Program-made: the position numbers and the translations under genes
The notes under the pieces: generated by a model
The model's database searches: none
What the model was told of the DNA's origin: nothing
The model's input: only the letters and a program-made list of their open reading frames with translations
Origin: Deltaproteobacteria bacterium
GTDB taxonomy: Bacteria > Desulfobacterota > Deferrimicrobia > Deferrimicrobiales > Deferrimicrobiaceae
DNA: 64,000 nt
NCBI GenBank assembly: GCA_050263095.1
Contig: JBLNEW010000027.1
Location: forward strand, 25,485-89,484
Reading direction: 5' to 3'
Shown here: positions 14,627 through 31,996 of the stretch, piece by piece
How positions within the stretch are numbered: the stretch's first letter is position 1
Layout: each line of letters begins with the position of its first letter

Positions 14627-15535
14627 CTACTGGGATGTAGAATATATTTGAATCCTGCTGTTTCCACGATCTGCGATGAATATGAATCCATTGTCATTTA
14701 CGCAAATTTGCGAAGGATAGTGCAGAAGCCCCTCTTTCCACCCCAAGTTCAATTGACGTCCCCTGAAGGAACCGTCGCGTCCCAAAATAACGATGCCGCT
14801 GCCGTTCTGATCAACTAAGAAAAGGTTTCCTCGATTGTCGGCTGCAATTGCAACGGGAAAATCTACATCTTCCTTCAGGCTTTCCGTGAGGGGTATTATT
14901 GAGGAAGAACCGGCGACTGACGTATAGACCCTCCTCCCGGTGCTATCGATAATGTAAAGATTGCCTGATGAATCTACCGTGAGATCGGAAAAGAATCCGT
15001 AATCTTCCGGAAAGGAGATCTCCCGTTGCACTTTGCCATCCGGCTGCAGAACTATCACTTTTTCAGACGATATGTCGAGGACGTATAAATTATCTTTTTT
15101 ATCTATGGTCATGCTTTTCGGCACGATGCCCCGCTGCGACGTTATAGTCGAAAAGTCGATATATCCCTTGAATTCTCCTCCAGAGGAAATTCTTCCGATT
15201 TTGCGATGTTTCCCATCAAGAACAAAAATATCCCCTATTGAATTCATCTGGACCCGTATGGGGTAAGGCAATTGAGGCAAGGAAATCTCGGAACCCGGAT
15301 TCAGGGTCTCCCCTGTGAAATTGAAACGTATAAGACGACCGTTACCAGTGTCAGCAACCACCAGAAGAGGCTTCTCGTTGCAGCTCACACCTTCCGGATG
15401 TTTCAGACCCGTTCCGCCCTCATCCGTATAACCGGATATCGCCGGCTTCAATTTCATCGTTTCCGCCGAAAACGAAGGAACCGGAGCAAAAAGGGCAATC
15501 AATGCGGGGGCGACATATTTTAAATATTTTCTCAC
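14627..15535 (-). CDS. Secreted NHL-repeat beta-propeller protein
   Basis: Six NHL-type repeats (LVVADTGNGRLIRF, IFVLDGKHRKIGRI, LYVLDISSEKVIVL, LYIIDSTGRRVY, LFLVDQNGSGIVIL, IFIADRGNSRIQIY). Signal peptide after a GTG at 15535, with GAGGTGA 4 nt upstream. An alternative ATG lies at 15559. Confidence 0.65.
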   Translation of the reverse strand: MRKYLKYVAPALIALFAPVPSFSAETMKLKPAISGYTDEGGTGLKHPEGVSCNEKPLLVVADTGNGRLIRFNFTGETLNPGSEISLPQLPYPIRVQMNSIGDIFVLDGKHRKIGRISSGGEFKGYIDFSTITSQRGIVPKSMTIDKKDNLYVLDISSEKVIVLQPDGKVQREISFPEDYGFFSDLTVDSSGNLYIIDSTGRRVYTSVAGSSSIIPLTESLKEDVDFPVAIAADNRGNLFLVDQNGSGIVILGRDGSFRGRQLNLGWKEGLLHYPSQICVNDNGFIFIADRGNSRIQIYSTSQ

Positions 15536-15539
15536 TTCA

Positions 15540-16811
15540 TCACCTCGTGAATTTGACATGGCACTGGACGCAAAGATCCATTTTAGGATCGAAATAAGCG
15601 AAAAGTTTCTTGTCGGTTCCATGCGACCGGTGGCAACTAAGGCAATCGAGGCTGAGATTGCGGTTACGCGGATCGACGATCTTCGCGCCGATCGGATGGG
15701 ACTTGTGTCTCTGCCAGTCATGGCAGGTTCCGCAAAGATCGATCGTCGATGCGTTATCCAACAAGAAAACATTATTCGAGGAATGCGGGGAGTGGCAACT
15801 CGAGCATTTCCCTTCCTCGACAGGTTTGTGTTTCGCAACCGACTTCTCTTGTCTAGCCATGGAATCCGCATGGCATGCCCCGCAAACCAATTTCACCTGC
15901 TCTTTCATAAGGCCATCCCATTTGGAGGAATGGGGATTATGACAGGTCAGACAACCCTCCTTACCCAGCAAAGGCCAGTGAACCCGGGTCTTTCCAAACG
16001 TATCGTTAAGCATGGAATTATGGCAGCCGCGGCATAATTCATATCCCGTCTTCCTGACTTTGAGCGCATTCGTCGAAGACGCTTCAAAGTGACATTGGTT
16101 GCACATCTTATTGGCAACGGGTCTATGGACATTCCCCCAGAAAAGCCCTCCCCTGTTGGAGCCGTGTGGATCATGGCAGGAGGTGCATCGCGACTTGGCC
16201 ACCGGATAGGCCTGATGCTGCCTAGCAAATGCGGGATTGGATGTCTTGTGACAATCGATACATAGGGATGGCACAGGATTTTTCAGCAGGAACGCGGAAC
16301 GTGTGGAAGCATGGGGATTGTGACAATTCAAGCAATCCGTCCCTACGGGGCCATGCTTGAACCTATATTTTTTAACGGCCTCGGATACTCCTTTATGGCA
16401 GCTGTAACACAGCTCGTTCCCCGAACTTCGCAAGTTAAACTTGTTATTGGATGCATGTGGGTCGTGGCAGGTCATGCAGTTTCCATCTGCTGCCGCCTGG
16501 TGGACACTTTGCGGCTTGGAAGGCAGTATGCCATCGTGACACGAAATACATATTTTATTTGCGCCAAGGGCTGTCAGTTTCCCGTGACCCGAGGTATGCG
16601 GATTGTGGCAGCTTGAACAGTCTCCCGACTTCACGGGGGAATGAACGAACGGCAGCTTCATTTTCTCGGCGAAATCCGTATGACAAGCGACGCAGATTTT
16701 CCCTTTCGCTCCCGGTTTCAATTTGAACTTATCCTGGGTATATGACGGGGATACCGACAGAATGGAAACGGGAACTAGAAACAGCAGGACAGCTTTCAGT
16801 CGCAAATTCAT
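15540..16811 (-). CDS. Multihaem c-type cytochrome with 16 CxxCH motifs
   Basis: Signal peptide MNLRLKAVLLFLVPVSILSV after an AGGAGA ribosome-binding site. 16 CxxCH motifs, many in the CxxCH(N/D)PH form typical of Geobacter-type polymerised c7/c3 domains. The start lies 10 nt after the stop of the upstream 26-haem gene. Confidence 0.85.
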   Translation of the reverse strand: MNLRLKAVLLFLVPVSILSVSPSYTQDKFKLKPGAKGKICVACHTDFAEKMKLPFVHSPVKSGDCSSCHNPHTSGHGKLTALGANKICISCHDGILPSKPQSVHQAAADGNCMTCHDPHASNNKFNLRSSGNELCYSCHKGVSEAVKKYRFKHGPVGTDCLNCHNPHASTRSAFLLKNPVPSLCIDCHKTSNPAFARQHQAYPVAKSRCTSCHDPHGSNRGGLFWGNVHRPVANKMCNQCHFEASSTNALKVRKTGYELCRGCHNSMLNDTFGKTRVHWPLLGKEGCLTCHNPHSSKWDGLMKEQVKLVCGACHADSMARQEKSVAKHKPVEEGKCSSCHSPHSSNNVFLLDNASTIDLCGTCHDWQRHKSHPIGAKIVDPRNRNLSLDCLSCHRSHGTDKKLFAYFDPKMDLCVQCHVKFTR

Positions 16812-16821
16812 GATTTCTCCT

Positions 16822-18801
16822 TTACTTCTTATCCACGATGTGACAATCCTCGCATGACCTTCCGGCAAACGGGGGGTGAACCTTGTTCTTGAAGAACTTC
16901 GGATCCTTCGAGGCATGCGGGTCATGACAGGATCGGCAATCCATTACCGCAGCATCGATGTATATATGTCCTTTTGCGAAGGACGCCGCATTTAGATCGT
17001 GGCATTCCCCGCACAATTTACCCGGAGGTTGGGAGAGCAAAGTCGTCTCGCTGGAGAAATGATGGGAATGACATCTCAGGCAATCCCGGGATGCGGGAGA
17101 GTGCGGCGTTTCCTTCTGGAGCTTCTCTTTTATGTCCTTATGGCATGCCAGGCACAGATCGGGACCTTGAACGAGGAGGAGTTTGCCTAATTTGGATTGG
17201 TGGGGATTGTGGCACTTCGTGCATTGTCCGGTCATAACCGGCGAGTGCGTGCTTTTACCGCTCTTCATTCCTGTGCCGAGTTCGGAATGACACTCGATGC
17301 AAATCTTCTCCTGCTTTCCCAGTATCATGCCAGGCAAGTTCGTCCCATGGGCATCGTGGCAGGTCAAGCATTCCCCCCCCTTGAAAGGCTCATGAGTTGA
17401 TCCACCGACTGACGATTTCGTCAGGTCTTCATGGCACTTCGAACATAGCGCCGCTCCAGCCAGACGGAGAAGCTTTTTCTCCTCCGAACCATGGGGATTG
17501 TGGCAGCCATCGCAATCCCCCTTAATTACCGGTTTATGAGAGTTGGTTTTTAAAAAACTCACTTCGGCGTCGGCGTGACACGCGTAACAAACCTTATCGA
17601 GACGATCCTTGACCAATGCATTGAAATTGGACCCGTGGGGATTGTGGCAAGCAGTGCATTTGTCCGAAATGAATGGCTGATGTCGGATTTTCGCCTTTTG
17701 TGCTGCCATCGTCTTGGGATGACATGTGAAGCATAACGTACTCCCTTTTTCCAGCAGGAGCCCCTTGTTCTTCGCGGCATGGGGGGCATGACAGGAAAGA
17801 CAGCCTTTCCCTCCGGTAACAGCGCCATGATTCCTGGCCACCGTTTCTCCCTTTTCCTTGTGGCACCCAAGGCACAGCGTTTTCCCCGGCTCCGCGAGAA
17901 GGGCAGGGTTTTCGGAAGAGTGGGGATTATGGCAGGATAGGCAATCCCCCTCCTTGTACGGGATATGTAAAAATTCTCCTCCGGCATTCAGCTTGCGATC
18001 ATCGTGACATTGATAACATAGAGCGCTTCCTTTCTCATTCACGCCGAACGGAGTTTTCGAGCCGGGCTTTGCATGGCAGGAGTCGCAGTTTCCCTCTACG
18101 ACGGGGCTATGGGCACTCGATTTCAGCAGCCTTGGCTGGCCTGATGAATGTGGATTGTGACAACCTGAGCAATTCGATTTTTCTACAGGGTAATTTCCAT
18201 GAGCCTTATTGAAGTTTGACTTGCCGGGGCCGTGACATGAAAGGCAAAGCGGAGTTGCAGCCTTTGTCAGCAGATTATCTTGGTCGGAACTGTGCGCAAG
18301 GTGACAGGCCTTGCATCCCTCCTTAATCATGATTTCATGGTTTATCTTGTCCTTGAACGATTCTTTCTTGTGACACTGGAAGCACATCTCCGCGCCTTCC
18401 GCCTTCAGCATGTGCTTTTCCTCGGAGGCATGCGGATTATGGCATTGCGTGCACTTGCCGGTTTTCATGGCTGAATGCACCTTGGACTTGTTCATGCCTA
18501 TTTTCCCCCGGTCATGACAAGACAAGCAAAGATCGTTTCCCTGTTTTTTCAGCAGGTTACTGGGAACAAGCCCGTGACGGAGATGACATTCCTCGCATTT
18601 CCCTTCCTTGACGTTCGGATGGATCGCCTTCATGGGAAAATATTTTGCGGAAAACTTTTTATGGCAGTCCAGGCACCCTTTTTTCTGGAAAGTTCTCACC
18701 TGCGCCCACGAAGGGACGTCGTACACAAGAAATGTTCCTCCGGAAACCAGAGCGAGTGTTACGACAACGAATAAAATTCTCCTGGATCCGCATGAAAGCA
18801 T
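16822..18801 (-). CDS. Multihaem c-type cytochrome with 26 CxxCH motifs
   Basis: 659 aa with a signal peptide. 26 CxxCH motifs, roughly one per 25 residues (CLDCH, CEECH, CLSCH, CTQCH ... CRSCH, CEDCH). Confidence 0.85.
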   Translation of the reverse strand: MLSCGSRRILFVVVTLALVSGGTFLVYDVPSWAQVRTFQKKGCLDCHKKFSAKYFPMKAIHPNVKEGKCEECHLRHGLVPSNLLKKQGNDLCLSCHDRGKIGMNKSKVHSAMKTGKCTQCHNPHASEEKHMLKAEGAEMCFQCHKKESFKDKINHEIMIKEGCKACHLAHSSDQDNLLTKAATPLCLSCHGPGKSNFNKAHGNYPVEKSNCSGCHNPHSSGQPRLLKSSAHSPVVEGNCDSCHAKPGSKTPFGVNEKGSALCYQCHDDRKLNAGGEFLHIPYKEGDCLSCHNPHSSENPALLAEPGKTLCLGCHKEKGETVARNHGAVTGGKGCLSCHAPHAAKNKGLLLEKGSTLCFTCHPKTMAAQKAKIRHQPFISDKCTACHNPHGSNFNALVKDRLDKVCYACHADAEVSFLKTNSHKPVIKGDCDGCHNPHGSEEKKLLRLAGAALCSKCHEDLTKSSVGGSTHEPFKGGECLTCHDAHGTNLPGMILGKQEKICIECHSELGTGMKSGKSTHSPVMTGQCTKCHNPHQSKLGKLLLVQGPDLCLACHKDIKEKLQKETPHSPASRDCLRCHSHHFSSETTLLSQPPGKLCGECHDLNAASFAKGHIYIDAAVMDCRSCHDPHASKDPKFFKNKVHPPFAGRSCEDCHIVDKK

Positions 18802-18829
18802 AATCTCTCCCCGTTGGCGTGCAGAAAAA

Positions 18830-20524
18830 TTATTTCACGAAATTTGAGATTATATCCTGTATTTGGGTATCGCCGGCAAGCACCTTGATCTCCGATGCCG
18901 CTCGCAGTTTTGCCGCATACTCTTCAATTGCGATTTGAAGGTTTTTATTAAACAATTTGCTTTTGATGTCCCCTTCCACCGAATTGAAAGGCTTCGGCCT
19001 GGAGGGGGTGACATCACGAATATAGAAAACATATATATGCCCTTCGGGACTCGTATAAATCCGAAAATCTCCAGGATTTGCCCCCGATACTGCTTTTCGT
19101 ACGTCATTCGGAATTTCGTCAAGCGGTAAAGCTTCTTCATCAAATTTCAGGAGATTTACCGCAATATCCTTTGATACTTGCCCGGAAGCATTCTCCATTA
19201 TCCAGAGGAAATCGGCTCCTTTCCTGAGCTTTTCGACAGCATCCAAGGCATATTCCTTATTTACGAAAACCAGGCTCTTAATTTTTAGAGATCCCGGAAG
19301 CGTATAATCCGCGATGTGCTCTGCGAAATAATTCTTTACTTCCTCATCTTCGACTTTAATCCCTGGAACAATAACATTTCTGATGAATGTACCAAACAGG
19401 ATGCTTCTCCTGTATTCTTCAACCTTATATTTGTATATTTTCATCCGATCAATTTTAAGTCGTTTCGCTTCCATTTCATAAACCGTTTTCATTACGATTT
19501 CATCGAGAACTTCCGCTTTTCTCCTGTTCACTTTCTTTTTTTCGCTTGCCCGTTCAACCCCGTGGAAAAATTTCTTTTGCAAGCTCTCAGAAAGACTTGA
19601 GACTGTTACCTGCTTGCCTCCCTTGATCCTGGCAATGATCCGGTTATCTCGCATAAGCGTCCCGTAATCCGGCTCAGGCACATCATAATCCAAGCCATCG
19701 AGGAGTTTCCTGTCCAGCTTCACATATTTTTTCTTCAATGCTTCCGAGTACGCCTTTAATGCGCGCAGTTTTTTTGCCTTTAAAGCTTCCTCGCGTGCAA
19801 GGGCAAGCGCATCGCTGTTTTCTGGAAAGCGGACATCCTCCAACATGCTTATGGAAAACCCGTTTCCGATTTTTACGATAGAGGTAATCGCGCCTATTTC
19901 AATCATGGATATTGCTTTTGCGACTTCCGGGAGCAGATCTTTATGTTTAATATACACTCCTTCTTGCCCGCCCTTGGCTTTCCCTTCACTGGCCAATTTC
20001 TTCGACAGAGACTCGAAATTCCCTCCTGATTTAATATCATCCTGGAATTTTCTTGCATCTTCCTCTGTGTTAATGAGAACGGAGGACAATTTCACTTCCT
20101 TGATCGATTCCCGATATAGTTTCCCGACCTCTTTTTTGTCCGGAGTTTTTATGCCCCTTATATGGTATGAATACAGCATCTGTCTGAGCGTAGAATTTTG
20201 ATACGTCGCAATATCTTTTATTACTTCATCGAGTTGGTCCAAACCGATGTTTTTCGATTCTTGAATGAACAATTCCATATTAATAAGCCGGTCGAGAAGT
20301 TCCGACTGGGTTTTCCGTACCGTTGTTTCTTCCTCGGACACGCCTTCATGCAGGGAAACAAGCGCTTTTTCGAATGCTTCGCGCGTTATCGGTACACCGT
20401 TCACGGTGGCAAGCGCAACATTACCGCCTCTCCCCCGCCCCTTGGCAGAACTCGTGAATCCCGTAGCGAAAAAAACAAATAACAATCCAAGCGCAATCGA
20501 TGCCGATAGAGTAGATTTCCTCAT
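18830..20524 (-). CDS. Periplasmic SurA/PrsA-like peptidyl-prolyl cis-trans isomerase (parvulin domain) chaperone
   Basis: Signal peptide. A long SurA-N-like helical region followed by a parvulin-type domain (...GGQEGVYIKHKDLLPEVAKAISMIEIGAITSIVKIGNGFSI...). Lower G+C than its neighbours. Confidence 0.65.
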   Translation of the reverse strand: MRKSTLSASIALGLLFVFFATGFTSSAKGRGRGGNVALATVNGVPITREAFEKALVSLHEGVSEEETTVRKTQSELLDRLINMELFIQESKNIGLDQLDEVIKDIATYQNSTLRQMLYSYHIRGIKTPDKKEVGKLYRESIKEVKLSSVLINTEEDARKFQDDIKSGGNFESLSKKLASEGKAKGGQEGVYIKHKDLLPEVAKAISMIEIGAITSIVKIGNGFSISMLEDVRFPENSDALALAREEALKAKKLRALKAYSEALKKKYVKLDRKLLDGLDYDVPEPDYGTLMRDNRIIARIKGGKQVTVSSLSESLQKKFFHGVERASEKKKVNRRKAEVLDEIVMKTVYEMEAKRLKIDRMKIYKYKVEEYRRSILFGTFIRNVIVPGIKVEDEEVKNYFAEHIADYTLPGSLKIKSLVFVNKEYALDAVEKLRKGADFLWIMENASGQVSKDIAVNLLKFDEEALPLDEIPNDVRKAVSGANPGDFRIYTSPEGHIYVFYIRDVTPSRPKPFNSVEGDIKSKLFNKNLQIAIEEYAAKLRAASEIKVLAGDTQIQDIISNFVK

Positions 20525-20611
20525 GGATTCCTTCCTGACGACATCATTTGATGCCGTCCTCCGACAAGTTTGTCGCAGGAATGGAAACTAAAAAATCGTT
20601 TATAAAAAGAT

Positions 20612-23600
20612 TCAGTCGCTGTCGGCTGATCCCAGCGCCCGTTCGATTACCTTATCGGTCATTTCCGCAGCGAGGGCATGGGATGTAGAAACTTTTCCCC
20701 AATCGAATAGAAACATGCAGTCGCTCCCGGTATTATAACTGGTGGAAGACCACGCCACCTTTTTTTTATTCGTGTCGATCGCCTGGCTTGAAAAATTCAC
20801 TAGCGGAAAGCCTGCCGGACCGATCGAATCCTGATAATCCCTCACGCTTCCGTAAAAAACCAGATCGGCATCCATCTCTTCACGCAGCAAGGCCGCCTGT
20901 GGAAGGGATAGTCCTCCCTCAAGGATCATCCGAGAACGCAATATGGCCATCCGAACTTCACCCGGATCGATCACGACAAGATCCCCTCTTTCTGCAAGAT
21001 GTTTCAAAAAATGCAGACGCATGATCTCACCGGCGTTTTTACGGGAACTATCGTTGAAAAAGGGAAGGACCGCGACCGATAGCGTTTTTCCGGTGCCTAG
21101 CGCAAAGTCCTTATTGCGAAAGAACTCCTTCGGATGGAATCGTTCACTTCTGCCGACACCGGAGCTGCGTCCAGTATTTTTTTTGATTCCACCAGTCTCT
21201 CCTGATAAAAGATGGCCGCTCATGGAATCTAGTATTTTGTTTACGACCCTGTCTCGGAGTATCCGTGAATCTCTTTCAAGACCTATGCCCAAGATTCCGG
21301 GAGCATCGTTTCCTGCCACGACGATGCTGTCCATCCAGATAATGGAGGCTTTCCTTCCGGTAGAGATAAGTCTGGATGTCAGGGCTACTCTTGGTGGGTA
21401 GTCTTCCGAAAATAAATCGATCGATATGGCAAGGACCGCGGCCGCGCCGGTTTCCTGTCTCAAGGCCTGCCCTGTATCCTTCGAAAGACCGGCGGCATAA
21501 CGGATCCGATGCCGTGTCATGAACTTTTCAAGGATTACTTCATCGACCACCTTGATCCCGTTCCTTTTCATTCGAGTTATAACGGATTGATTGATCTCTT
21601 TTACAGGAGCGGCGACACCGCTAAGGTTCTCAATCGGGAACACGGCGATCAACGAATCCAACCCGAGTTCTCTTGTAATTTCAAATCCCGAAGACCAGCC
21701 GCTGTCCGCGGTATTTCCAAGGGCGTCACGCAGTACCACCTTGACCCGATAGAAACCGGGTTGCTCGGGTCTCCATTCCAACACCGGCGACGGCCCTTTC
21801 TGCACGATGATCTCTTTGTTCCTTCTAGAAACATGGAACTCGTAGACGTACGCGCCGATGCCTCCGGAAGCGACTGCGGTCCACCGGATGACTGCGGATA
21901 CCGCTCTTTGTGGAAACGACACGTCAGGAACGAGGTTTATTACAGCGGGAGGCAACACAACCGCGTACGGCGGCGACCAACCGCTGCTTGCGATATTGCC
22001 CAGGGCATCACGCACAATCACATTTACCCGGTAACTGCCAGGCTCCCGAGGCGCCCATTCCAAGCTTGACGAAGGCCCTTCCTGCAATATTCTTTCTTCT
22101 TTCCCGTCGGATACCCGGAACTCGTATCTTTTTTCACCTACCCCCCCCGATGTCTTTGCAGTCCAACGGATGGTTGTTGTTCCGGCGGCTTGAGGGGGTT
22201 GCCTGTCGGGTGCCAGTAAATCGACTTTCAGTTGAGGCATCACCATGTATTCCGGAGACCATCCTCCATCCAGCCTGTTCCCGAGGGCATCCGTCGCGAT
22301 AACTTTTACTCGGTGTAGTCCCTCTTTCATCGGCGTCCACGCCAATACGGGCGAAGAACCCTTCTGCTCGCTTACCTCTTCCGTTCCATCAAAGCTTCGA
22401 AATTCATATAATCGGCTGCCGGCACCGCCCGACACGTCGGCCTTCCAATTAATCGTTGTGGTAACCGCAGTCTGAGGGGAGGGCTTGTCCGGATTAAATG
22501 ATTTCAGCAAAAGCGGCGGGGCAACTTCGTATTCCGGAGACCAACTACTATCCGCGACATTGCCGTGTAAATCCTTGACAGACACCTTCACACGGTAGAT
22601 GCCGGCATCTTGAGGTACCCATATCCATGTGGGCGACTCTCCCTTCTGCATTAATACGACCTCGTTATCCTTATGGAGATAGAAGGCGTAAGTCCGGGCG
22701 CCCATCCCTCCGTCGACGACCGAGATCCAGCGTATCTTGGCTGCATTCGCAACTTGTGGCGATGCCTTGTCTGATCCAAGAGAAGAAACCGAGAGTGGAG
22801 GAATAAATGTATATTCCCGGGACCATCCGCTATCCGCGGTATTGCCATGCGAATCGCGAATTATGACTTTTATACGACAGGTTCCGGCCACCGACGGTAT
22901 CCAATCCAAGGCCGGTGACGGCCCTTTCTTTCTGAAAACTTCCTTGCCGTTCCGTGTAATATGGAACTCGTATTCGAGCGTCCCGATTCCGCCAGAAGCT
23001 GCCGCAACCCACCTGAACGGATTCGAAGCTACCGCCGGAGACATATTATCTGATCGTAACGACTCAATAAACAACGGTGGAACAACTTCGAAAGGCGTTG
23101 ACCAGCCGCTGTCGGCCATGTTACCGGCTGAATCCCGTACTACAACCATCACACGATAGCTTCCGGCCTTTTTAGGCAACCAGCGCCATTCGTGTAACGG
23201 GCCCCTCTGTTCCAGCGTCTCTTCGACCGCATTTAAAATGCGAAATTCATAAGTCAACGCGCCAATACCGCCGGATGCAACAGCGGACCATCGAATCTGT
23301 GACGAAACCGCAGCCTGCGGAGAATTTCTGTCCGGCTTCAATGACACTATTTCAACCTTGGGGGCCACTTCAAACTCCGATAACCAGCCGCTGTCTACGG
23401 TATTTCCCAGCGCATCCCGAACGATCACTTTCAACCTATACGTTCCGGCATCCATTGGAATCCAGTCCCATGCCGGCGAAGGCCCCTTTTGAACCATAGT
23501 CTGCTTGTCGCCTGCCATGGTATGGAACTCATATGTGAATGGGCCTACCCCACCCTCTGCAGACGCCGTCCATCTGATTTTTGAGGAGGATGCCGCCTGT

Positions 23601-24034: not shown

Positions 24035-24587
24035 GAAGATCGTTGACCGCCTTTTCAGTAACGATGTTCATCGGCTCGCCGCCTCCACCGAACAGACGGT
24101 CTGCTGTGGAGACTCCGCCTTTGGTGGAAGAACCAGACCACACAATCCTTCCAGTGCGGCCTTCGATCATCTGAAGGCTGACGGAGACTATATTGGCCAC
24201 GCTCGTTCCAGAACGAACCTCTCCGTATTCCCGCACAGTTCCTGTAACCACAGCGTCTGCCTTTACGATCGTCGCTAACTTCAGTATTTCTTCGGTTGTC
24301 GGCGCTGCCGGAGCAGTAATTCCTGCCCTTGATATCCCGCGCCCCACTTCTCCGGGGGGTATAACGTAGACTCCCTGGGTAGCGAGAAGCATAGTGATGA
24401 AAACATCTCTAACACGGTCAGCGGCGGATGTTTCCCTCGAAAGGTTGGCGAAAGGCATTACGGCCACGTTCTGCACAAGCCCAAAATCCATGTTCGGGTC
24501 CCGGAAGGATCCCTGAGTCGTGCCAAGGGTGGAAGCGCATCCGACTGAAACCACTATAAAGACGAGGATGATTCCGATTTTTTTCAT
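24012..24587 (-). CDS. Small lipoprotein with an LpoB/CsgG/DUF799-like domain
   Basis: MKKIGIILVFIVVSVGCAS lipobox. NVAVMPFANLSRETSAADRVRDVFITMLLATQGVYVIPPGEV...AVVTGTV matches the two C-terminal modules of the giant lipoprotein. The listed ORF start at 24620 is an upstream extension. Confidence 0.6.
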   Translation of the reverse strand: MKKIGIILVFIVVSVGCASTLGTTQGSFRDPNMDFGLVQNVAVMPFANLSRETSAADRVRDVFITMLLATQGVYVIPPGEVGRGISRAGITAPAAPTTEEILKLATIVKADAVVTGTVREYGEVRSGTSVANIVSVSLQMIEGRTGRIVWSGSSTKGGVSTADRLFGGGGEPMNIVTEKAVNDLLDKLFGK

Positions 24588-24646
24588 CCTGTCCCTCGTT
24601 TCTGTCGAGATAATTACCATTATATTCCGCTAAACCCCGCGCATGC

Positions 24647-26872
24647 TCAGAAAGCAAGATGCAAATTCGTACTCACGACCTCGTTCTTATTTTTTTGGGA
24701 AGGAGCATCGTTGTTAAGATACTGATAGGACAAATCAACATACCTACCCCTGTTGCCGCCTATATTCCACCGAAGGCTGGGGATGATTCTCCTTTCCCTG
24801 CTGTTGTCTTCCGTATGGATCGTCTCGTTGTAATTAAAGTTGAGGTTAAGTGTCCCGTCCGGGAAAGGTGACCAGTTCGCCGAATAATTCCATGTTGTTG
24901 TATTGGTCGAATTGCCCAAACTCGTACTCCTGGTTCTCTGCAATGAGCCGAAGATATAGAGAGTGCGGAGTGGATTATAGGTAACCGAAATCCCGCCAGT
25001 CCGCTGTTTATCAGTAGTCTCATCGGAGTTACCCCCAAGCGTCCGCATCGTGTCCGACTCAAAGTACGCGAGATTGACGGTCATCGTTCGATGGGGAACC
25101 AACGTCAGTCCTGCATTTAATTGAATGGTCTCGATCTTCGCAGCCGTACTCGATTTCTGTACGCTTCCTCCCGCTCCTATATTTGCATCCACACCATCAT
25201 ATAAATGCGCACTATTGACAAAGGTGATGGAGTTCGTTTCGTTTTTTTCCTGCCCGGATTCCCGCGTCTGTCCCGTGTATACGACAGAGTGGTGGAGCGT
25301 TTGCAACGGGGTCGCCGAGATCGAAGCGGTATATGTGTAACCCAACTGCTGTTCCCCTGTCTGATCCTTGCTGTCCTCCCGCGAAACCCTTGCGAATCCT
25401 GAAAATATCCGCCCGAACTCGCGGTTGAATGAAAGCCCGTTGGATAGATCGTATGCCGAAGGCAAGGAGGAATTCTTAAGCAGGAAGTACGAAAGCTCGT
25501 AATACAGGTTCTGATTTTTCAAGAGCTTCGCGCGTGCATTAAAGTTGTAGCGATGATTGGTTCTGACCACCTTAGGGTTTATATCGGCGGCCTGCCTCCT
25601 CAGCGTAGCCTGGAGTTCCGTCACGAGGATGTTCGGGAAGTTGTTCGCAAACGGAACGGCCGACGACAGCGGTCTGGTAACGACTTTGATGTATCGGGTT
25701 GTCACTGTATCGAAGTCGATCTGGAACCTGGTCACGAACGGCCCGAAAACCGCCGGGAACACCGCCCTGTGGAGATTCCAGGTCCTGTTGTCTTCGCTAG
25801 TATAGACTTCCCAGGAAAACGTTCCGGCGATATCTTGCGGAATATCCCTGTCGACCCAAACAAGGAGGGAATTCACCTGTGTATCCAGAAAAAAATCCAA
25901 GCCCATGCTTCGTGGTCGGGAGTCCCCCGAAGGCGGTGGCAGTCCGAGATTGATTCCCGTCCCGGCGGCGAAATCCCCATCAATGAGGGCCGGATTGGAG
26001 TCAAGAGTAATCAGCAATGGAGTGTCGTTTATCGATGAAAGACCGGCGACCGGAGAAAGAGGAAAGCTTACCTCGCCTGAACCTCCTTTGGAAAATTCCG
26101 TATCACTATGAAAAATATAATAATTCGAACTAATCGAGATCCGGTTTTTCCACCACGATTCCGAATAGGTCACGCTGCCCTCGTGGGACGTATTCCGGCT
26201 TTCGATATTTTGCAGATTGTTGCGGTTTTTGTTTATTGCTCCGCCGTATCGTAGACTAACCGATTTTACAGGTTGATAATTCGCGGTCAACTGGAAGCTG
26301 TCATCGGTACCATCGTTTATCCTGCGTTCCTTGTCGAAAGTGTCCGTATGGAAATATCGGAAAAATGTTTCGGGAAACCCATCCGGCCTCCACCCCAGGG
26401 TTGCGAAGTATGTCTGTCTCACTGTCGTTAGCGGTGTGGTTGTAGAGGTCTTGACTTCTTGTTCCGTCCGGCTGTATCCCCCTTCGGCCTGATATAGAGG
26501 CGTTCTAAGGTTCAGGATTATGAATGGCCTCATTTTCGTATCGGCAATATTGTTCTCACGACCTTCAAGTTCCGTTATCAATGCATTCCGCTCAAACAGC
26601 CCGCCTGCGACTACGCCAAGATTGGGGAAAATACGTTTGTCGAGCGTCAAAGAATACCGCTGGATGAACGAATCGCTTTTCGATTCGGTTGTAAGTCCGG
26701 CTGCATCCTCGTTCTTGGAAGCCGCCTTCGTGAATATGAAATCCATATATCCGTTCATCCCATCCGCTGCGACTTGCTCAACGATAAGGACCGAAATCAT
26801 AAATAATACAGCAGAGAATCGCAGCGCAGGGAAATTCCTTTTTCCCGATGGTATCCTTGCTTCCTTTCGCAC
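24647..26872 (-). CDS. Large (741 aa) outer-membrane beta-barrel protein, uncharacterised
   Basis: Signal peptide. Extensive alternating beta-strand pattern rich in Y, N, T and G. C-terminus ...VVSTNLHLAF, ending in the terminal Phe signature of outer-membrane barrel proteins. Sits 5 nt downstream of the YVTN gene. Confidence 0.6.
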   Translation of the reverse strand: MRKEARIPSGKRNFPALRFSAVLFMISVLIVEQVAADGMNGYMDFIFTKAASKNEDAAGLTTESKSDSFIQRYSLTLDKRIFPNLGVVAGGLFERNALITELEGRENNIADTKMRPFIILNLRTPLYQAEGGYSRTEQEVKTSTTTPLTTVRQTYFATLGWRPDGFPETFFRYFHTDTFDKERRINDGTDDSFQLTANYQPVKSVSLRYGGAINKNRNNLQNIESRNTSHEGSVTYSESWWKNRISISSNYYIFHSDTEFSKGGSGEVSFPLSPVAGLSSINDTPLLITLDSNPALIDGDFAAGTGINLGLPPPSGDSRPRSMGLDFFLDTQVNSLLVWVDRDIPQDIAGTFSWEVYTSEDNRTWNLHRAVFPAVFGPFVTRFQIDFDTVTTRYIKVVTRPLSSAVPFANNFPNILVTELQATLRRQAADINPKVVRTNHRYNFNARAKLLKNQNLYYELSYFLLKNSSLPSAYDLSNGLSFNREFGRIFSGFARVSREDSKDQTGEQQLGYTYTASISATPLQTLHHSVVYTGQTRESGQEKNETNSITFVNSAHLYDGVDANIGAGGSVQKSSTAAKIETIQLNAGLTLVPHRTMTVNLAYFESDTMRTLGGNSDETTDKQRTGGISVTYNPLRTLYIFGSLQRTRSTSLGNSTNTTTWNYSANWSPFPDGTLNLNFNYNETIHTEDNSRERRIIPSLRWNIGGNRGRYVDLSYQYLNNDAPSQKNKNEVVSTNLHLAF

Positions 26873-26877
26873 CCAAC

Positions 26878-28278
26878 CTACCTTTCTCCCATGATTGTCA
26901 CCCGGAACGGCTCTTCTCCTACTTCGATTTCCGCAAAGGCTTCCTTGCTCACCAAACGGATTCCCTTGACCGTTTTTTCTCCCGGAAGCACGAGGAAAAG
27001 GCTGTTCCCCTCACCGTCGATCGCCATAAAGGCGACCTCGCCCGGCACGGCGATAAAATCGATGGGAAGAAACGAGAAGGGATCGTAGATATCAATCTTG
27101 CCGGTATGCTGTCGCGCCAGGTAGATCCAGTTGTTTTGGTGATCCACCTTCAACGCGGTCGCTCCTGTTCCCACGCGGATCTTGTTGATGATCGAAAAGG
27201 AAAATGGATTAATCACGTATAAATACGGGGAAGATCGATGAGCGACATAAAATCGGCTCCCGTCCCGATTGAATCCCCCACTTACGGGCTCCGAATCCGT
27301 GGATATCGTTGCCGCCACCTGTTGGCTTGGCAGGTCGATCACAGAAACAGAGTTGGATAAGCGGTTCAATATGTACGCTCTTCTGCCGTTCTGATCTATT
27401 TGAAGCGACTCCGGTCCTTTCCCCACATTGATTCGCAAAACTTCAATCAGGGACGCGGTGTTGATCACGCTTACCGTGTTCGATCCGACATTTACGGAAA
27501 GAAGTTTTCCTCCATCCGGCGTCAATGCAAGTTCGCGCGGATAATCTCCGCCGGCGAGATGCAGGCGGTTGTCGACCTCGCCCGTGAGGACGTCGATGAC
27601 TTCGACGGCATCTTCTCCGGAAAGGGCGACATATAATTTTGCTTTCCTTCGGTCCAGCGCCAACCCGGAAGGTGCCGTTCCGGTGGGGACCACGGAAATC
27701 ACATGTCCGGTCAGCTTGTCAAATATCGTCACCGTGTTCGAGTCGCGGCTGGAAGCATACCCAATCAATCCACTTGGAATTTTACCCGGGATGTCGATGT
27801 CAAATACGGGTGATATGCGGAAGCCGCCGTGAAGGGAATCCTGATATCTATATGAAAGTTTAAGGACGGTGCCGCGTTTCCTGCCAACCGTGAAGGGGAT
27901 CACTGTACGAGTGGCTTCCGAAGGCACAAGCACCACAGCTTCCCCTTCCTCCCCTTTCAGCGAGGCAGACTCGATCTTAAAGGCGATGCCAGCATACCGC
28001 CCGGGAGGAAGCGTACCGGAGGCGATCATTCGCTCCTTCGTAACCTCGATTCGATTCACGTCCGTTAAGGAAAGAACCATAGGAAATTCCGCCCCGTCTT
28101 CGCGCAGCGCGGAAATTCCTCCGATGCGGAATGAAAGCCGTCCCGCTTCTTGGGAGAGAGGGGCGATATACAGATAAATCGCTCCATCGTCCTCAAGTGC
28201 AGGTCTGACAAGGGATTTTTTTGCCTGGCATCCCCATAACGGCAGAAATACAGCAAGAATGATCGCAATGCGCTTCAA
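26878..28278 (-). CDS. Lipoprotein with a YVTN-family beta-propeller
   Basis: Lipobox LWGCQA. Repeated YVTN-like units of about 40 aa (SGLALDRRKAKLYVALSGEDAVEVIDVLTGEV; PRELALTPDGGKLLSVNVGSNTVSVINTASL; SLQIDQNGRRAYILNRLSNSVSVIDLPS...). Confidence 0.65.
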   Translation of the reverse strand: MKRIAIILAVFLPLWGCQAKKSLVRPALEDDGAIYLYIAPLSQEAGRLSFRIGGISALREDGAEFPMVLSLTDVNRIEVTKERMIASGTLPPGRYAGIAFKIESASLKGEEGEAVVLVPSEATRTVIPFTVGRKRGTVLKLSYRYQDSLHGGFRISPVFDIDIPGKIPSGLIGYASSRDSNTVTIFDKLTGHVISVVPTGTAPSGLALDRRKAKLYVALSGEDAVEVIDVLTGEVDNRLHLAGGDYPRELALTPDGGKLLSVNVGSNTVSVINTASLIEVLRINVGKGPESLQIDQNGRRAYILNRLSNSVSVIDLPSQQVAATISTDSEPVSGGFNRDGSRFYVAHRSSPYLYVINPFSFSIINKIRVGTGATALKVDHQNNWIYLARQHTGKIDIYDPFSFLPIDFIAVPGEVAFMAIDGEGNSLFLVLPGEKTVKGIRLVSKEAFAEIEVGEEPFRVTIMGER

Positions 28279-28375
28279 GACTTGCTCCGGTTTTTTTCGC
28301 CAATCATTCGATGACGCGATGTAACAAGCCTATCCCACAGAGCGTTTGCGGGCAATTGATAAAAGGTTATCGACT

Positions 28376-28412
28376 AATAAAAAGGGGCCGGCGTACAAGG
28401 CCGGCCCCTTTG
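28376..28412 (-). terminator. Rho-independent terminator downstream of the OmcS-like gene
   Basis: Perfect 9-bp GC stem GGGGCCGGC / GCCGGCCCC (28384-28392 / 28400-28408) with loop GTACAAG. On the minus strand it is followed by a T-run (rc of TAAAAAGG). Confidence 0.7.
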
Positions 28413-28459
28413 ATTATGCCTTCCTCGCCGGATTGTTTAATTCCGGCAAGCCCGCGAAC

Positions 28460-29710
28460 TTAATCCTTCGCGTGGCACTTGTTGCAAAGAACTCTCTGAT
28501 ATGCGCCAAAGCTGGATGCAGGGCGGTTATAGTATGCGGCATTTGCCTGCTCCTGGTTGCGGCCAATCGAGCTAGACGGCCAAAGCACGTTGCCGCCAGA
28601 TACAGTGGTAAGGAACTCGCTCTCACCGTACCAACGCAGCATTTCCGGGAATCCGGAGGCATGGGCGCGGTGGCAAGAAAGGCACATCACCTGGGCGCCT
28701 TGTGTGGGATAGGTCAAGTTTGAGTCATTGTCATTCGCAAAAGACTTGATCACATTGTATGAACCGGAGTTTACGGCGTACGGTACAAGCGAAAGATACG
28801 AGTTGTCGCTGGTGTTCGTCATTTTCCCCGAGCTCATATACGTCTGGTAGTTGCTTGCAAATGTGTTATTCAATGTTTGGTCGACCGGGTGGACGGTATT
28901 GCCCGAGCTGTGCATGCCCGCATGGCACGTCTTGCACCAATTGCCCCATGTGGTATTGCCGGCTGCGTTGCCGACTCCGTAGGAGACGCGCACCTGGTTG
29001 TCCGACTCATCGTGGTTATAGCTGCTGGGCGATATCGCCGCAGGAGCTCCAAGGTAGCCGATCGCGCCAGCCGCAGTCGTCGAGTACCCGGAGCCGGCAA
29101 GCAGACGATATGTACCTACGGCTGCTGTAGCAGTCGGAGCCGCTTTCGTCGTGGAGCCGGAGCCCATAATGGGATATCCCGTCTTGACGATAGTATCATC
29201 AACCAGCCTGCGGAACTGTCCGTGCTGATCATGGCAGGAATTGCAGTGAAGCGCGTTGGACTGGAATGACCCGCCGGGAGCCTGGGCGTTCGTGGCGTCG
29301 GCGGTCATACCATGGTCGACGGCAACGATGTTATGTCCGTGGCTGTCACCTGTTTCATTCGTCGTTTCGCCGTGCGCGGTGAAGGTGAAGGGAATGCGAA
29401 CCCACTGAAAATCTCCGCCCGGCGTATAATTGGCGGGTTTCCCGCCCAGGGCGATTCTGTCCGCATCGGTGGTGAGAATATGATAGCTGCTGGGCGTAGT
29501 AGCGCCCGCTACCATGTGGCAGTTAAGACAAGTGGAGCTTGGATCGCTGCCTTTCAGCAATAAAGTTCCGCTGCCTGCGGCGGGGGAATGCATGCTATGG
29601 CAGCCGGCGCAATCGGCAACGCCGCCCCCGTGAAATGCGTAAGTAGTGCCCGCCCCTAGCGCCAAAAAGGCCGCCGCAAGGATGATGACGCTTACTTTCA
29701 TCGCTTTCAT
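28460..29710 (-). CDS. OmcS-family hexahaem c-type cytochrome (candidate extracellular nanowire subunit)
   Basis: Signal peptide, then the mature N-terminus FHGGGVADCAGCHSMH. Six CxxCH motifs (CAGCH, CLNCH, CNSCH, CKTCH, CLSCH, CNKCH). Conserved blocks shared with Geobacter OmcS as I recall it: SSTCLNCH, PSSYHI, TPGGDF.WV, GHNIVA, LHC.SCHD.HG.FRR.VD, G.YR.L.G.GY, CLSCHRAHASGF, AAYY.R, F..YQR.LCNKCHAKD at the C-terminus. Thr/Ser/Gly/Ala-rich. Confidence 0.8.
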   Translation of the reverse strand: MKAMKVSVIILAAAFLALGAGTTYAFHGGGVADCAGCHSMHSPAAGSGTLLLKGSDPSSTCLNCHMVAGATTPSSYHILTTDADRIALGGKPANYTPGGDFQWVRIPFTFTAHGETTNETGDSHGHNIVAVDHGMTADATNAQAPGGSFQSNALHCNSCHDQHGQFRRLVDDTIVKTGYPIMGSGSTTKAAPTATAAVGTYRLLAGSGYSTTAAGAIGYLGAPAAISPSSYNHDESDNQVRVSYGVGNAAGNTTWGNWCKTCHAGMHSSGNTVHPVDQTLNNTFASNYQTYMSSGKMTNTSDNSYLSLVPYAVNSGSYNVIKSFANDNDSNLTYPTQGAQVMCLSCHRAHASGFPEMLRWYGESEFLTTVSGGNVLWPSSSIGRNQEQANAAYYNRPASSFGAYQRVLCNKCHAKD

Positions 29711-29942
29711 TTCCCCTCCTCTTTCGCTCCGGCAGCCCGGCCGTCCTTCCTTTCAGCCTATCCAGGACCCGTCGGCTTTGCGCCCCCACCTCTCGATGGG
29801 TTTACCCTTTTCGGAGGAGTGTCTTGGGTTGAATGCCGGTAACCACGCCCTCAATGACTCTTTCTCCTCTGAACGAGAATCTCGATTCCCCTGCAAGCCA
29901 CCCCCTCTCCCTCATGACATGGATTCCACTGCCTTCAATCAA

Positions 29943-30935
29943 TCAGTTCGCGGTAACGGAAAAAACGCTGACTCCAGCCTTCGGAGACTGCGTGACGTAG
30001 ACCTGTCCATTGTTCCCTAACGCTACGGACGCAGGAGCGATCAGGTTGCCGGGTGCGCTTCCCCTAAATCCAAACTCCGTGAGGAATTTGAAGTTTCGGT
30101 TGAAGACCATCACAACGCACTTCAACTTATCGGTCACAAAAATATTTCCGTCGTTATCCACCGCGATACCGGACACAACGCCGAACATTCCGGGGGCGCC
30201 GCCTGGCTTTCCGAAAGAAAATACTTTTCCCTCAGGGGAAACCTTGTATGCCTTGAAATTCACTGGCACCGTGAAGTAGAAGTTTTCTTCCCGGTCGACA
30301 TAGAAACCAAAAAATTCGGTATCGGGGCGCTCGTTCTCATCAACCCCGATAATCGCGCCGAAATTGAAACCCTTTTCGAAAACTCCCCTTTTATCCGTAA
30401 CTATCGCCGTCATCCCTCTCAAGTTGGCGAAAAAGAATCGCCCATTGCGGTAATACATGCAGTTCGGTCCATATTCGGAATATTCCGGGGGGAGGTTCGA
30501 TAACGTGATTTTTTCTATAAGTTTTCCCCGGTAATTACACCTGCAAAGGTAAAACCTGCGCTTCGCGATTCCTTCCGCGGAAGGGTAGTCGGAAGGGGGA
30601 TAATCATAGGAAAGCAGATAGATGTCGCCATCCTCGTCTACGACAATCCCGTAAATCCCGCCCAGTTCCTGCGTCTCAAGGAAAGAATAGATTTCCATGC
30701 CGCTTTCGTTGAAAATACGGACCGATCCCCCGTCGTCAACGTAGACCTCATTGTGTTGGCTATCGACGGAGACCCTCACCTGACTGTATGGAATAGTGCC
30801 GGAAAAATCAGAAAGTTTATAAAGATATCTGGCCGTGATTCCCGATTGAGCGATAGATGGAAATATCGAAAATATGAACGGGACCCACATAAGTGAAAGA
30901 AAAAGTCGAGTCGCATTATTTATAGCAGCATGCAT
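29943..30935 (-). CDS. Secreted NHL-like beta-propeller protein (first gene of the cluster)
   Basis: NHL-type units (GIVVDEDGDIYLL, GIAVDNDGNIFVTD, NNGQVYVTQ). Signal-like MHAAINNATRLFLSLMWVPFIFSIFPSIAQS. The listed ORF starts at 30977; the ATG at 30935 gives a cleaner signal peptide. Confidence 0.55.
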   Translation of the reverse strand: MHAAINNATRLFLSLMWVPFIFSIFPSIAQSGITARYLYKLSDFSGTIPYSQVRVSVDSQHNEVYVDDGGSVRIFNESGMEIYSFLETQELGGIYGIVVDEDGDIYLLSYDYPPSDYPSAEGIAKRRFYLCRCNYRGKLIEKITLSNLPPEYSEYGPNCMYYRNGRFFFANLRGMTAIVTDKRGVFEKGFNFGAIIGVDENERPDTEFFGFYVDREENFYFTVPVNFKAYKVSPEGKVFSFGKPGGAPGMFGVVSGIAVDNDGNIFVTDKLKCVVMVFNRNFKFLTEFGFRGSAPGNLIAPASVALGNNGQVYVTQSPKAGVSVFSVTAN

Positions 30936-31156
30936 GGCGTCGTATGATTCTGCAATGGACATGCCACAACTTAGCATGCAAAATAACCAGCAATATAAGC
31001 CATTTACGGCATTGAGAAACAGCAGAAAAGCATGAGTTGGTGGAAATCCTTATCTCCCCCGGGGAAATCACCAATTGTGTGAATGAAGCAGGTCAGGCAA
31101 GCGGAAAGCTTACTTCGCGTGCGTCAGGTAGAAGAATCGCACGTTAGAATGGGTAA

Positions 31157-31202: not shown

Positions 31203-31311
31203 AATTGAATCTGGTTTTATCCCGGAAGACCTAACTGTTCGATTTGAAACGTTGCTTGCTGACATTAAATGAATTGATTATTAAGGCATGTAAATTGCTC
31301 ATGGTTTAAGC

Positions 31312-31989: not shown

Positions 31990-31996
31990 TGCTGAT

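Follow-up and report, generated by a model that had tools for sequence, protein, structure and literature searches.

Does a ten-gene cluster from an uncultured deltaproteobacterium encode the means to build and export a cytochrome nanowire of the OmcS type? The cluster lies in a stretch of 64,000 nucleotides (nt) assigned to the family Deferrimicrobiaceae (GenBank assembly GCA_050263095.1, contig JBLNEW010000027.1, positions 25,485 to 89,484), which at its full length we call the window and whose first letter is position 1. Given the homologies, gene order, and control elements described below, this is very probably an osc-type cytochrome-nanowire biogenesis locus in a deltaproteobacterial metagenome-assembled genome. 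The window would thereby offer a compact, single-subunit OmcS biogenesis cluster from outside Geobacter.

Ten consecutive open reading frames (ORFs) occupy the minus strand from 14627 to 30977. A first-pass annotation, made from the letters alone, had listed these genes in order and had coupled the OmcS-like gene among them to putative export and assembly genes and to giant multiheme cytochromes. The ORF list and our domain calls agree with that order, and the coupling is borne out by full-length homology with all heme ligands in place, by synteny across phyla, and by a gene-for-gene match to Geobacter.

The 416-amino acid (aa) OmcS-like protein aligns end to end with Geobacter sulfurreducens OmcS as solved in PDB 6EF8, with query residues 26-416 matching chain residues 1-407 (phmmer E = 2.4e-95, 45% identity). 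Ligands were compared in an alignment of 52 sequences, comprising the window protein, the solved OmcS, and 50 hexaheme ORFs from related loci. Six CxxCH motifs and the histidines H2, H16, H110, H147, H257, and H335 (OmcS numbering) are invariant throughout, and the window protein retains all 12 heme-ligand histidines. These include His16, which we take to be the ligand that is donated to the heme of the neighboring subunit in the 6EF8 structure. Because all heme ligands are invariant, the window protein keeps what the filament requires. In addition, its mature N-terminus reads FHGGG, as compared to FHSGG in OmcS. The OmcS family is large, with more than 4000 proteins at E <= 1e-10 in a search with the solved OmcS. 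Since the window cluster has a single hexaheme gene, the assignment of the subunit within it is unambiguous, and we consider this protein a putative polymerizing filament subunit on the strength of its sequence.

The osc cluster of G. sulfurreducens was reportedly described by Shen et al. 2025 (Cell Chem Biol 32:239), whose role assignments are given here via citing papers. According to PMC13194489, the osc (omcS companion) operon includes omcS, omcT, and oscC, where GSU2501 is oscC, GSU2495 is oscI, and GSU2494 is oscJ; simple arithmetic from these pairs makes GSU2500 through GSU2496 equivalent to OscD through OscH. The same paper, citing Shen et al. 2025, gives proposed roles in folding for OscH, in secretion for OscE/F/G, and in filament morphology for OscD. 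Maturation and secretion of nanowires have been linked to the eight-gene block GSU2500-GSU2493, ahead of which a GSU2501-type hexaheme gene stands in every case; Geomobilimonas luticola is among its carriers, and GSU2495 is a 26-heme protein of ~70 kDa (bioRxiv 10.1101/2025.11.06.686851). A porin-like mounting of the filament has been hypothesized as well, with large barrels present in most OmcE and OmcS regions (bioRxiv 10.1101/2025.10.22.684050). The first-pass annotation had called the export of cytochrome filaments essentially uncharacterized, a statement that is now outdated. With the osc cluster and its function on record since 2025, the window opens no new question.

For comparison we used the Geobacter locus that was the top match of a search with the solved OmcS (L056), which encodes a 94% identical protein named OmcS. 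Its genes are, in order, a PMT_2+TPR protein, a 621-aa kinase, a sigma-54 regulator, a 315-aa protein, OmcS, OmcT, a 1017-aa spermidine-synthase-like protein, a third hexaheme cytochrome, a YVTN protein, a 718-aa barrel, and a GNA1162-like lipoprotein. The identities to Geobacter proteins given below are blastp values that extend over near-full lengths for the five cluster proteins compared and for the regulators. In order of transcription, the ten window genes are as follows.

29943 to 30935, minus strand: NHL beta-propeller, first operon gene, counterpart of GSU2505 (start at ATG 30935 or 30890, uncertain; Pfam NHL; 40% full-length identity to the 315-aa protein before Geobacter omcS).

28460 to 29710, minus strand: OmcS-family hexaheme cytochrome, putative nanowire subunit (match to PDB 6EF8 as above; six CxxCH; 45.5% to OmcS, GSU2504; 42% to OmcT, GSU2503; 40% to the third hexaheme protein, GSU2501).

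26878 to 28278, minus strand: YVTN beta-propeller lipoprotein of 466 aa, counterpart of OscD/GSU2500 (TIGR02276 E = 1e-37, Pfam YNCE; lipobox LWGC; 41% to the Geobacter YVTN protein).

24647 to 26872, minus strand: outer-membrane beta-barrel of 741 aa, counterpart of OscE/GSU2499 (~28 strands and a discoidin-like insert at residues 267-427 in a structure model; 38% to the 718-aa barrel).

24012 to 24587, minus strand: PelC/GNA1162-like lipoprotein of 202 aa, counterpart of OscF/GSU2498 (Pfam GNA1162-like, PF05643, E = 1.5e-12; 60% to the Geobacter protein).

20612 to 24034, minus strand: lipoprotein of 1140 aa combining eight Ig-like repeats of 94 aa with two PelC-like domains at the C-terminus, expanded counterpart of OscG/GSU2497 (Pfam Y_Y_Y/PKD/Big).

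18830 to 20524, minus strand: SurA-like periplasmic chaperone of 564 aa with parvulin peptidyl-prolyl isomerase (PPIase) domains, counterpart of OscH/GSU2496 (Pfam SurA_N_2/3, Rotamase, Rotamase_2; syntenic in related loci at 30-48% identity).

16822 to 18801, minus strand: 26-heme periplasmic cytochrome, counterpart of OscI/GSU2495 (26 CxxCH; 13 paired-CXXCH domains).

15540 to 16811, minus strand: 16-heme periplasmic cytochrome, counterpart of OscJ/GSU2494 (16 CxxCH; AAGGAG before ATG 16811; syntenic in related loci).

14627 to 15535, minus strand: NHL beta-propeller, last gene of the eight-gene block, counterpart of GSU2493 (Pfam NHL E = 1e-17; start GTG 15535 has a Shine-Dalgarno sequence, and the product a signal peptide; syntenic in related loci).

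The labels previously given to the propellers, the 1140-aa repeat lipoprotein, and the SurA-like PPIase agree with profile searches, which find NHL repeats in the first and last proteins, GNA1162-like/LpoB matches in the 202-aa lipoprotein, Y_Y_Y/PKD/Big repeats and a weak C-terminal GNA1162-like match in the 1140-aa protein, SurA-N and two parvulin domains in the 564-aa protein, and paired-CXXCH units in both large cytochromes (13 and 8, respectively). Likewise, the CxxCH counts reproduce the predicted 6, 26, and 16 hemes. The gene limits called for some correction. All ten ORFs are present, but three limits are longest-ORF artifacts, with likely starts at GTG 15535, ATG 16811, and ATG 30935 or 30890; ATG 30977 would overlap a sigma-54 promoter and is therefore unlikely to be where the first NHL gene begins. 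The 202-aa and 1140-aa genes share 23 nt if the latter starts at TTG 24034. Gaps of 5-90 nt had been described throughout the cluster except for one spacer of 181 nt. However, 232 nt (29711-29942) separate the upstream NHL gene from the OmcS-like gene, and a riboswitch lies in this gap.

The eight genes 3′ of the window hexaheme gene are those that follow the Geobacter hexaheme gene, and an NHL gene and two-component sigma-54 regulators precede it in both. The synteny check suggested by the first-pass annotation therefore succeeds for the equivalents of GSU2505-2498, with conserved accessory genes, and its description of a complete and compact version of such a locus is apt, given that all ten genes are present with only one hexaheme gene. 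We conclude that the window locus is the osc cluster in a minimal form, and thus a new example of a published system. As in G. sulfurreducens (GSU2505-GSU2493), the same genes stand in the same order, a kinase and a sigma-54 regulator lie upstream, and a GEMM-I riboswitch precedes the subunit gene. There are also differences. Geobacter has three hexaheme genes (omcS, omcT, and GSU2501) where the window has one, and the GSU2502-type gene inside the Geobacter cluster is represented in the window by two copies on the other strand, beyond the cluster. The OscG-like protein has 1140 aa, with eight extra Ig-like repeats, compared to ~370-445 aa. Unlike in Geobacter, a receiver-PilZ gene is situated between the regulators and the cluster, and the sigma-54 site precedes the NHL gene in the window but the GSU2501-like gene in Geobacter. 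Finally, the window proteins are only 38-60% identical to those of Geobacter.

The omcE clusters likewise combine two multiheme cytochromes, two beta-propeller lipoproteins, a nanowire subunit, and a large beta-barrel, and they often lie beside GT39/TPR glycosylation genes (bioRxiv 10.1101/2025.10.22.684050). However, their subunit family differs, being the tetraheme OmcE, and the likeness to osc is one of gene content.

Conservation was assessed by scanning one genome per species with an alignment of the 741-aa barrel, which yielded 51 related loci whose labels are Thermodesulfobacteriota, Nitrospirota, Acidobacteriota, Deferrimicrobiaceae, Rokubacteria, Geomonas, and Geomobilimonas. Among the candidates scored, the barrel has 283 homologs, nearly all of them unannotated. 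When the ten window proteins were used as tblastn queries, all ten genes were found in 27 of the 51 loci, and they are colinear in 24 of these 27. A further 17 loci are cut by contig ends and keep a colinear order in what remains, while 10 are rearranged or incomplete, mostly through relocation of the PPIase-cytochrome part. Because the barrel was the search anchor, these data indicate that the barrel is always accompanied by an OmcS-like gene; the converse is not implied. The barrel gene is joined by both multiheme cytochrome genes in almost every locus.

Conserved control elements accompany these genes. The following elements and regulatory genes lie within or immediately upstream of the window cluster.

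28381 to 28411, minus strand: intrinsic terminator or attenuator hairpin after the subunit gene, with a 12-bp stem that includes 9 G-C pairs, followed by the T-run TTTTTATT.

29727 to 29815, minus strand: GEMM-I cyclic-dinucleotide riboswitch of the c-di-GMP-I-GGC variant (Rfam RF03167, clan CL00126; 62.6 bits against a gathering threshold of 59, E = 2e-12).

30951 to 30966, minus strand: sigma-54 (-24/-12) promoter TGGCATGTCCATTGCA, matching 10 of 11 consensus positions (TGGCAC-N5-TTGCA) with correct GG-N10-GC spacing.

31149 to 31189, minus strand: direct repeat TATGGTGATAACACCCAT / TATGGTGATATTACCCAT, 16 of 18 positions identical and 23 nt start to start, a candidate enhancer site for the adjacent sigma-54 activator.

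31312 to 31989, plus strand: response-regulator receiver and PilZ protein, divergent from the cluster (Pfam; ~15 loci have a homolog immediately upstream of the NHL gene, on the other strand).

31997 to 33388, minus strand: sigma-54-dependent response regulator (bacterial enhancer-binding protein), counterpart of GSU2506 (Pfam Response_reg, Sigma54_activat, and HTH_8; 45% to the Geobacter regulator; adjoins the cluster in many loci).

33385 to 34839, minus strand: HAMP/HisKA sensor histidine kinase, counterpart of GSU2507 (Pfam; 31% to the 621-aa Geobacter kinase; 61-68% to related loci L005, L009, and L031).

34839 to 35747, minus strand: PhnD-like periplasmic binding protein, encoded at the head of the sensor operon that precedes the cluster (Pfam Phosphonate-bd E = 7e-62; 69-76% identity and the same position in L005, L009, and L031).

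The riboswitch ends 16 nt before the start codon of the OmcS-like gene, with the Shine-Dalgarno sequence just past its 3′ strand. Among 13 loci tested with Rfam models, 8 have the same riboswitch ahead of the OmcS-like gene, Geobacter omcS included. A covariance model built from nine copies was then applied to 52 related loci, where matches at E <= 5e-22 were found in 25 loci from several phyla; in 23 of these, the element ends 2-19 nt before the hexaheme ORF. Across 26 instances, 97.9% of the cells pair, compared to 32-48% for slid controls, and 13 pairs show compensatory changes. The covariance model did not find the riboswitch in two Geobacteraceae loci that have only a GSU2501-type hexaheme gene (L025 and L027). 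Because the Geobacter omcST operon is reported to carry a riboswitch responsive to cyclic GMP-AMP (cGAMP) and cyclic di-GMP (c-di-GMP) (PMC6456294), the window riboswitch fits a known system. Since its conserved 5′ CUCCUCC could base-pair with the Shine-Dalgarno sequence, the aptamer may act by translational control. Together with the receiver-PilZ gene, the riboswitch points to control of the cyclic-di-GMP type.

The promoter TGGCATGTCCATTGCA is the only sigma-54 site of its kind in the window, although with 0.55 sites expected per window by chance it is weak evidence alone. Its recurrence adds weight: 24 of 36 loci have an equivalent site no more than 300 nt ahead of the NHL gene, where chance would give 0.027 per locus (P about 3e-29). 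No sigma-54 site was found before the OmcS-like gene or in the other gaps of the window, and a scan with the sigma-70 consensus returned sites no more numerous than in shuffled sequence. The operon of PhnD-like, kinase, and sigma-54-regulator genes adjoining the cluster is also conserved. About 185-240 nt upstream of the -24/-12 element, the direct repeat TATGGTGATAACACCCAT / TATGGTGATATTACCCAT is a possible binding site for the sigma-54 activator, judging from its position. In Geobacter, omcS was up 2.6-fold in an RpoN-overexpressing strain according to Additional file 1 of PMC2725144, and that paper's supplements place GSU2506-2507 among the operons downstream of predicted RpoN promoters.

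Only one strong sigma-54 site is present in the Geobacter omcS locus (TGGCACTGGCCTTGCT, L056 15519-15534, plus strand, 10 of 11 positions), and it falls within the final part of the spermidine-synthase-like gene, with 364 nt between it and the GSU2501-like hexaheme gene that follows. Because this site precedes the GSU2501-like gene rather than the NHL gene, it suggests that omcS, omcT, and GSU2502 were added in Geobacter upstream of an older unit of promoter, hexaheme gene, and osc genes.

The terminator that the first-pass annotation had placed in the 181-nt spacer after the filament gene is indeed there, as a 12-bp hairpin with a T-run. When the spacer after the subunit gene was scanned for a hairpin plus T-run, 20 of 42 related loci passed, ~17 of them with the hairpin 27-76 nt past the stop codon. 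This arrangement fits high expression of the subunit and low expression of the machinery. The conserved riboswitch, sigma-54 promoter, and terminator provide handles on the timing of nanowire production. Their presence across phyla goes beyond the first-pass annotation, as do the PelC likeness, discoidin-like insert, Ig-like extension, and compositional island described below.

The 741-aa protein matches no Pfam family in profile searches. It has a signal peptide and a C-terminal Phe, and its AlphaFold2 (AF2) model, based on a 23-sequence alignment, has a mean predicted local distance difference test (pLDDT) score of 84.7. In agreement with the earlier label of outer-membrane barrel, the model forms a large beta-barrel in which 11 long strands are followed by a beta-sandwich insert (residues 267-427) and 17 more strands, about 28 in total. 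The insert, which follows strand 11 and precedes strand 12 (25591-26074, minus strand), gives weak F5/8-type-C and galactose-binding matches (E about 0.01), and the insert of a homolog (P0014) has a discoidin/galactose-binding match above the Pfam threshold. Coming after 11 strands in the model, it would face outward. Searches by fold returned usher, MtrB, LptD, and TonB-dependent receptor barrels and could not separate these classes.

Both lipoproteins encoded next to the barrel resemble PelC. Their lipoboxes read SVGC and LCGC. The 202-aa protein matches PelC (9H80, E = 1e-5) and GNA1162 (E = 3e-5) in a phmmer search of the PDB. For the C-terminal 382 residues of the 1140-aa protein, AF2 predicts two tandem alpha/beta domains (pLDDT 82), for which Foldseek ranks PelC best (E about 1e-8, TM 0.70-0.82), followed by GNA1162, LpoB, and TolB-N, with CsgG further away. 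The former label of LpoB/CsgG-like was therefore correct as to the fold group, but PelC and GNA1162 are the closest relatives and CsgG is more distant. Homologs of the C-terminal part are mostly 340-500 aa long, Geobacteraceae included, so the eight Ig-like repeats, with their 94-aa period, represent a lineage-variable extension. The extension also occurs in loci L008, L015, L017, L038, and L040, and in L005 via a full-length match.

PelC forms a ring beneath an outer-membrane barrel. The PelC match therefore suggests a concrete arrangement for the two lipoproteins, and PelC-like folds beside a wide barrel supply a structural hypothesis for how a folded multiheme filament passes through or onto the outer membrane. 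As in the window, the PelB-PelC exporter (PDB 9H80, 5T10, and 5T11) is encoded by a barrel gene beside small lipoproteins of the PelC/GNA1162 fold. However, its cargo is a polysaccharide whereas the window cargo is presumably a heme protein, and the window has two different PelC-like proteins, one with tandem domains. PelBC has a dodecameric ring docked under a PelB-type barrel with a TPR scaffold, and profile searches of the window cluster found no such scaffold. A literature search for PelC together with OmcS returned no relevant paper.

The chaperone-usher systems (PapC/FimD) offer a second comparison. In these, as in the window, a subunit, a periplasmic chaperone, and a large barrel are encoded together, and the subunit gene is followed by a terminator. 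Usher barrels also appear among the fold matches of the window barrel, although these matches are generic only. In contrast, the chaperone is an Ig-fold protein of the PapD type in those systems and SurA/parvulin-like in the window, and their subunits join by donor-strand exchange where those of an OmcS-type system join by heme ligation. No PapD or usher Pfam match and no usher plug or N- or C-terminal domain was found in the cluster.

One route from signal to filament can be proposed for the osc-type locus. The PhnD-like, histidine kinase, and NtrC-type sensor module would activate the sigma-54 promoter before the NHL gene, and the GEMM-I riboswitch abutting the Shine-Dalgarno sequence would gate expression of the subunit. 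The hairpin after the subunit gene may pass only part of transcription to the accessory genes, so that subunit would be abundant and machinery scarce, in the manner of pilin operons. Once exported by Sec and loaded with heme, the subunit could be kept assembly-competent by the SurA-like PPIase (OscH) and then exit, or be mounted, via the ~28-strand outer-membrane barrel (OscE). The PelC-like lipoproteins, OscF with one domain and OscG with two, would lie under the barrel by analogy with the ring that PelC forms beneath PelB. The YVTN and NHL propellers might act on the filament, OscD being linked to morphology, while the 26- and 16-heme periplasmic cytochromes would bring electrons through the periplasm to the filament base.

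We also entertain a more specific proposal, less likely than not, in which the OscE/F/G-like trio is a PelBC-like machine for protein cargo. In such a machine, a PelC-fold ring would sit under the unusually wide ~28-strand barrel with its surface discoidin-like domain, and one pore would serve both as secretion port, exporting or anchoring a folded and heme-loaded filament, and as electrical feed-through, where the 26-heme cytochrome could touch the base of the filament, under three regulatory levels conserved across phyla (sigma-54 two-component system, riboswitch, and attenuator).

Several points weigh against reading the locus as an osc-type nanowire system. The ring of PelC-like proteins and its stoichiometry in the window cluster are inferred by analogy, and the attenuation model is likewise an interpretation of the hairpin. 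The counterparts of GSU2497-2493 were matched via G. luticola (L025) and loci L027, L045, L050, and L053, because the Geobacter comparison locus ends inside the GSU2498-like gene. The window subunit is about equally distant from OmcS, OmcT, and the GSU2501-like protein (45.5, 42, and 40%), values too similar to place it in either the OmcS or the GSU2501 clade. In Geobacter, a wire is known for OmcS only and not for its paralogs OmcT or GSU2501 (bioRxiv 10.1101/2025.11.06.686851). The roles assigned to Osc proteins rest on papers citing Shen et al. 2025, with genetics in G. sulfurreducens only, as cited in PMC13194489. Furthermore, there is dispute over the part that OmcS filaments play physiologically in electron transfer (PMC11077965).

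Two of these points, the similar distances and the wire known for OmcS only, would fit if the hexaheme protein were a monomeric or membrane-associated paralog of OmcS, like OmcT or GSU2501, and the cluster matured a surface cytochrome that forms no filament. It also accords with such a role that all genomes with the eight-gene block have a GSU2501-type gene directly upstream (bioRxiv 10.1101/2025.11.06.686851). However, the invariance of every heme ligand, with the presumed intersubunit ligand His16 among them, the agreement of the mature N-terminus with that of OmcS, and the status of the protein as the sole hexaheme product of the cluster all favor a filament subunit. The riboswitch, too, is shared with Geobacter omcS and missing from the GSU2501-only loci L025 and L027. 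We therefore regard a nonfilamentous paralog as rather unlikely.

Comparably improbable, in our view, is a porin-cytochrome conduit of the Mtr/Pcc type, in which the barrel would sheathe a 26-heme chain feeding an extracellular OmcS-like acceptor while the subunit leaves the cell by another way. The fold of the barrel is compatible with MtrAB (PDB 6R2Q), and both large cytochromes have DmsE-family domains, exceeding the cut-off of the DmsE/MtrA decaheme model TIGR03508 with 295 and 221 bits versus 192. That both cytochrome genes travel with the barrel gene, as noted above, would also be natural for a conduit. Nevertheless, of the porin, periplasmic decaheme, and surface lipoprotein decaheme that make up an Mtr complex, the last is missing, as the cluster encodes no lipoprotein cytochrome of the MtrC/OmcB type. 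The window cytochromes have 26 and 16 hemes rather than 10. Moreover, the window adds propellers, PelC-like lipoproteins, and a SurA-like chaperone, and known porin-cytochrome complexes have no role for the latter two. Genetics cited in PMC13194489 tie OscE/F/G to OmcS secretion. A conduit would in any case be compatible with export, since the two are not mutually exclusive.

It is very unlikely that the barrel and the PelC-like lipoproteins instead export a cytochrome-anchoring polysaccharide in the manner of PelBC, with the OmcS-like protein merely co-regulated. In its favor, the lipoproteins match PelC best in both structure and sequence, the barrel insert resembles discoidin and galactose-binding domains, a GT-C/TPR membrane protein is encoded beside the window cluster, and the Geobacter locus has a PMT_2+TPR protein and a family-2 glycosyltransferase at its flanks. 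However, profile searches of the conserved ten-gene block found no polysaccharide synthase, polymerase, or Wza/PelB-type TPR scaffold, and the published assignment, as given in PMC13194489, is OmcS secretion. Finally, although the base composition of the block differs sharply from that of its flanks, chance adjacency of the ten genes or a misassembled contig is refuted by the recurrence of the colinear order in dozens of genomes and by an independent assembly (L001, SRR7777797) that is 100% identical over 23606-32736, GC junction included.

This composition bears on how the osc-type cluster may have reached its present genome. The G+C content at third codon positions is 0.46-0.65 in the ten cluster genes, 0.32 in an adjoining TPR membrane gene, 0.51-0.52 in two spermidine-synthase-like genes, and 0.78-0.88 in the flanks. 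The low-GC block spans ~6.3-31.0 kb, beginning directly after a tRNA-Val gene (6199-6273) and stopping at the first gene of the cluster; because the junction is reproduced by the independent assembly, it is not a chimera. No such GC dip was found in related loci. Horizontal acquisition or replacement of the block is plausible from its composition, and the locus, lying in a low-GC block beside a tRNA gene, is a further indication that such machinery is widespread and passes from lineage to lineage.

Sequence identities gave no sign that a foreign allele had replaced the cluster in situ. All pairs among the window, L005, L009, and L031 are 40-65% identical in the cluster and 61-76% in the flanks, with no signal specific to the window. 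Because the cluster genes are equally divergent in all pairs, identity does not single out the window lineage, and it is the composition alone that is unusual. A search for island borders marked by att-like direct repeats yielded only a 17-nt match to a fragment of tRNA-Val inside the 1140-aa gene, which is probably due to chance.

The remainder of the low-GC block contains three further genes with Geobacter relatives.

12522 to 14579, minus strand: multi-transmembrane and TPR protein of 685 aa (GT-C/PMT_2-TPR type), a possible eleventh gene (TPR Pfam matches; 24% identity across 555 aa with the PMT_2+TPR protein at the flank of the Geobacter locus).

6463 to 12476, plus strand: two fused membrane/spermidine-synthase-like proteins of 1001 aa (6463-9468) and 989 aa (9507-12476), counterparts of GSU2502 (Pfam Spermine_synth; 25% and 29% identity, respectively, over ~870 aa to the 1017-aa Geobacter protein).

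The first of these lies 47 nt beyond the last cluster gene on the same strand, and thus the unit may extend past 14627. Its product has many N-terminal membrane helices and C-terminal TPRs, and the gene has a GC content of 35%. The likeness to the PMT_2+TPR protein hints at a possible link to glycosylation like that reported for omcE clusters. One member of the spermidine-synthase-like pair has C-terminal TPRs. Homologs of these proteins adjoin the cluster in L009, L018, L031, L043, L021, L022, and L055, and in Geobacter GSU2502 occupies a position inside the osc cluster, between omcT and the GSU2501-like gene.

Just left of the tRNA-Val gene, two plus-strand genes (4173-4973 and 5326-6114) encode proteins of ~265 aa with two cytochrome-c7 domains each, and their GC content is between that of the low-GC block and that of the flanks. 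Farther left, a tRNA-Sec gene is present at 2986-3081 on the minus strand, as detected by both ARAGORN and Rfam (73 bits).

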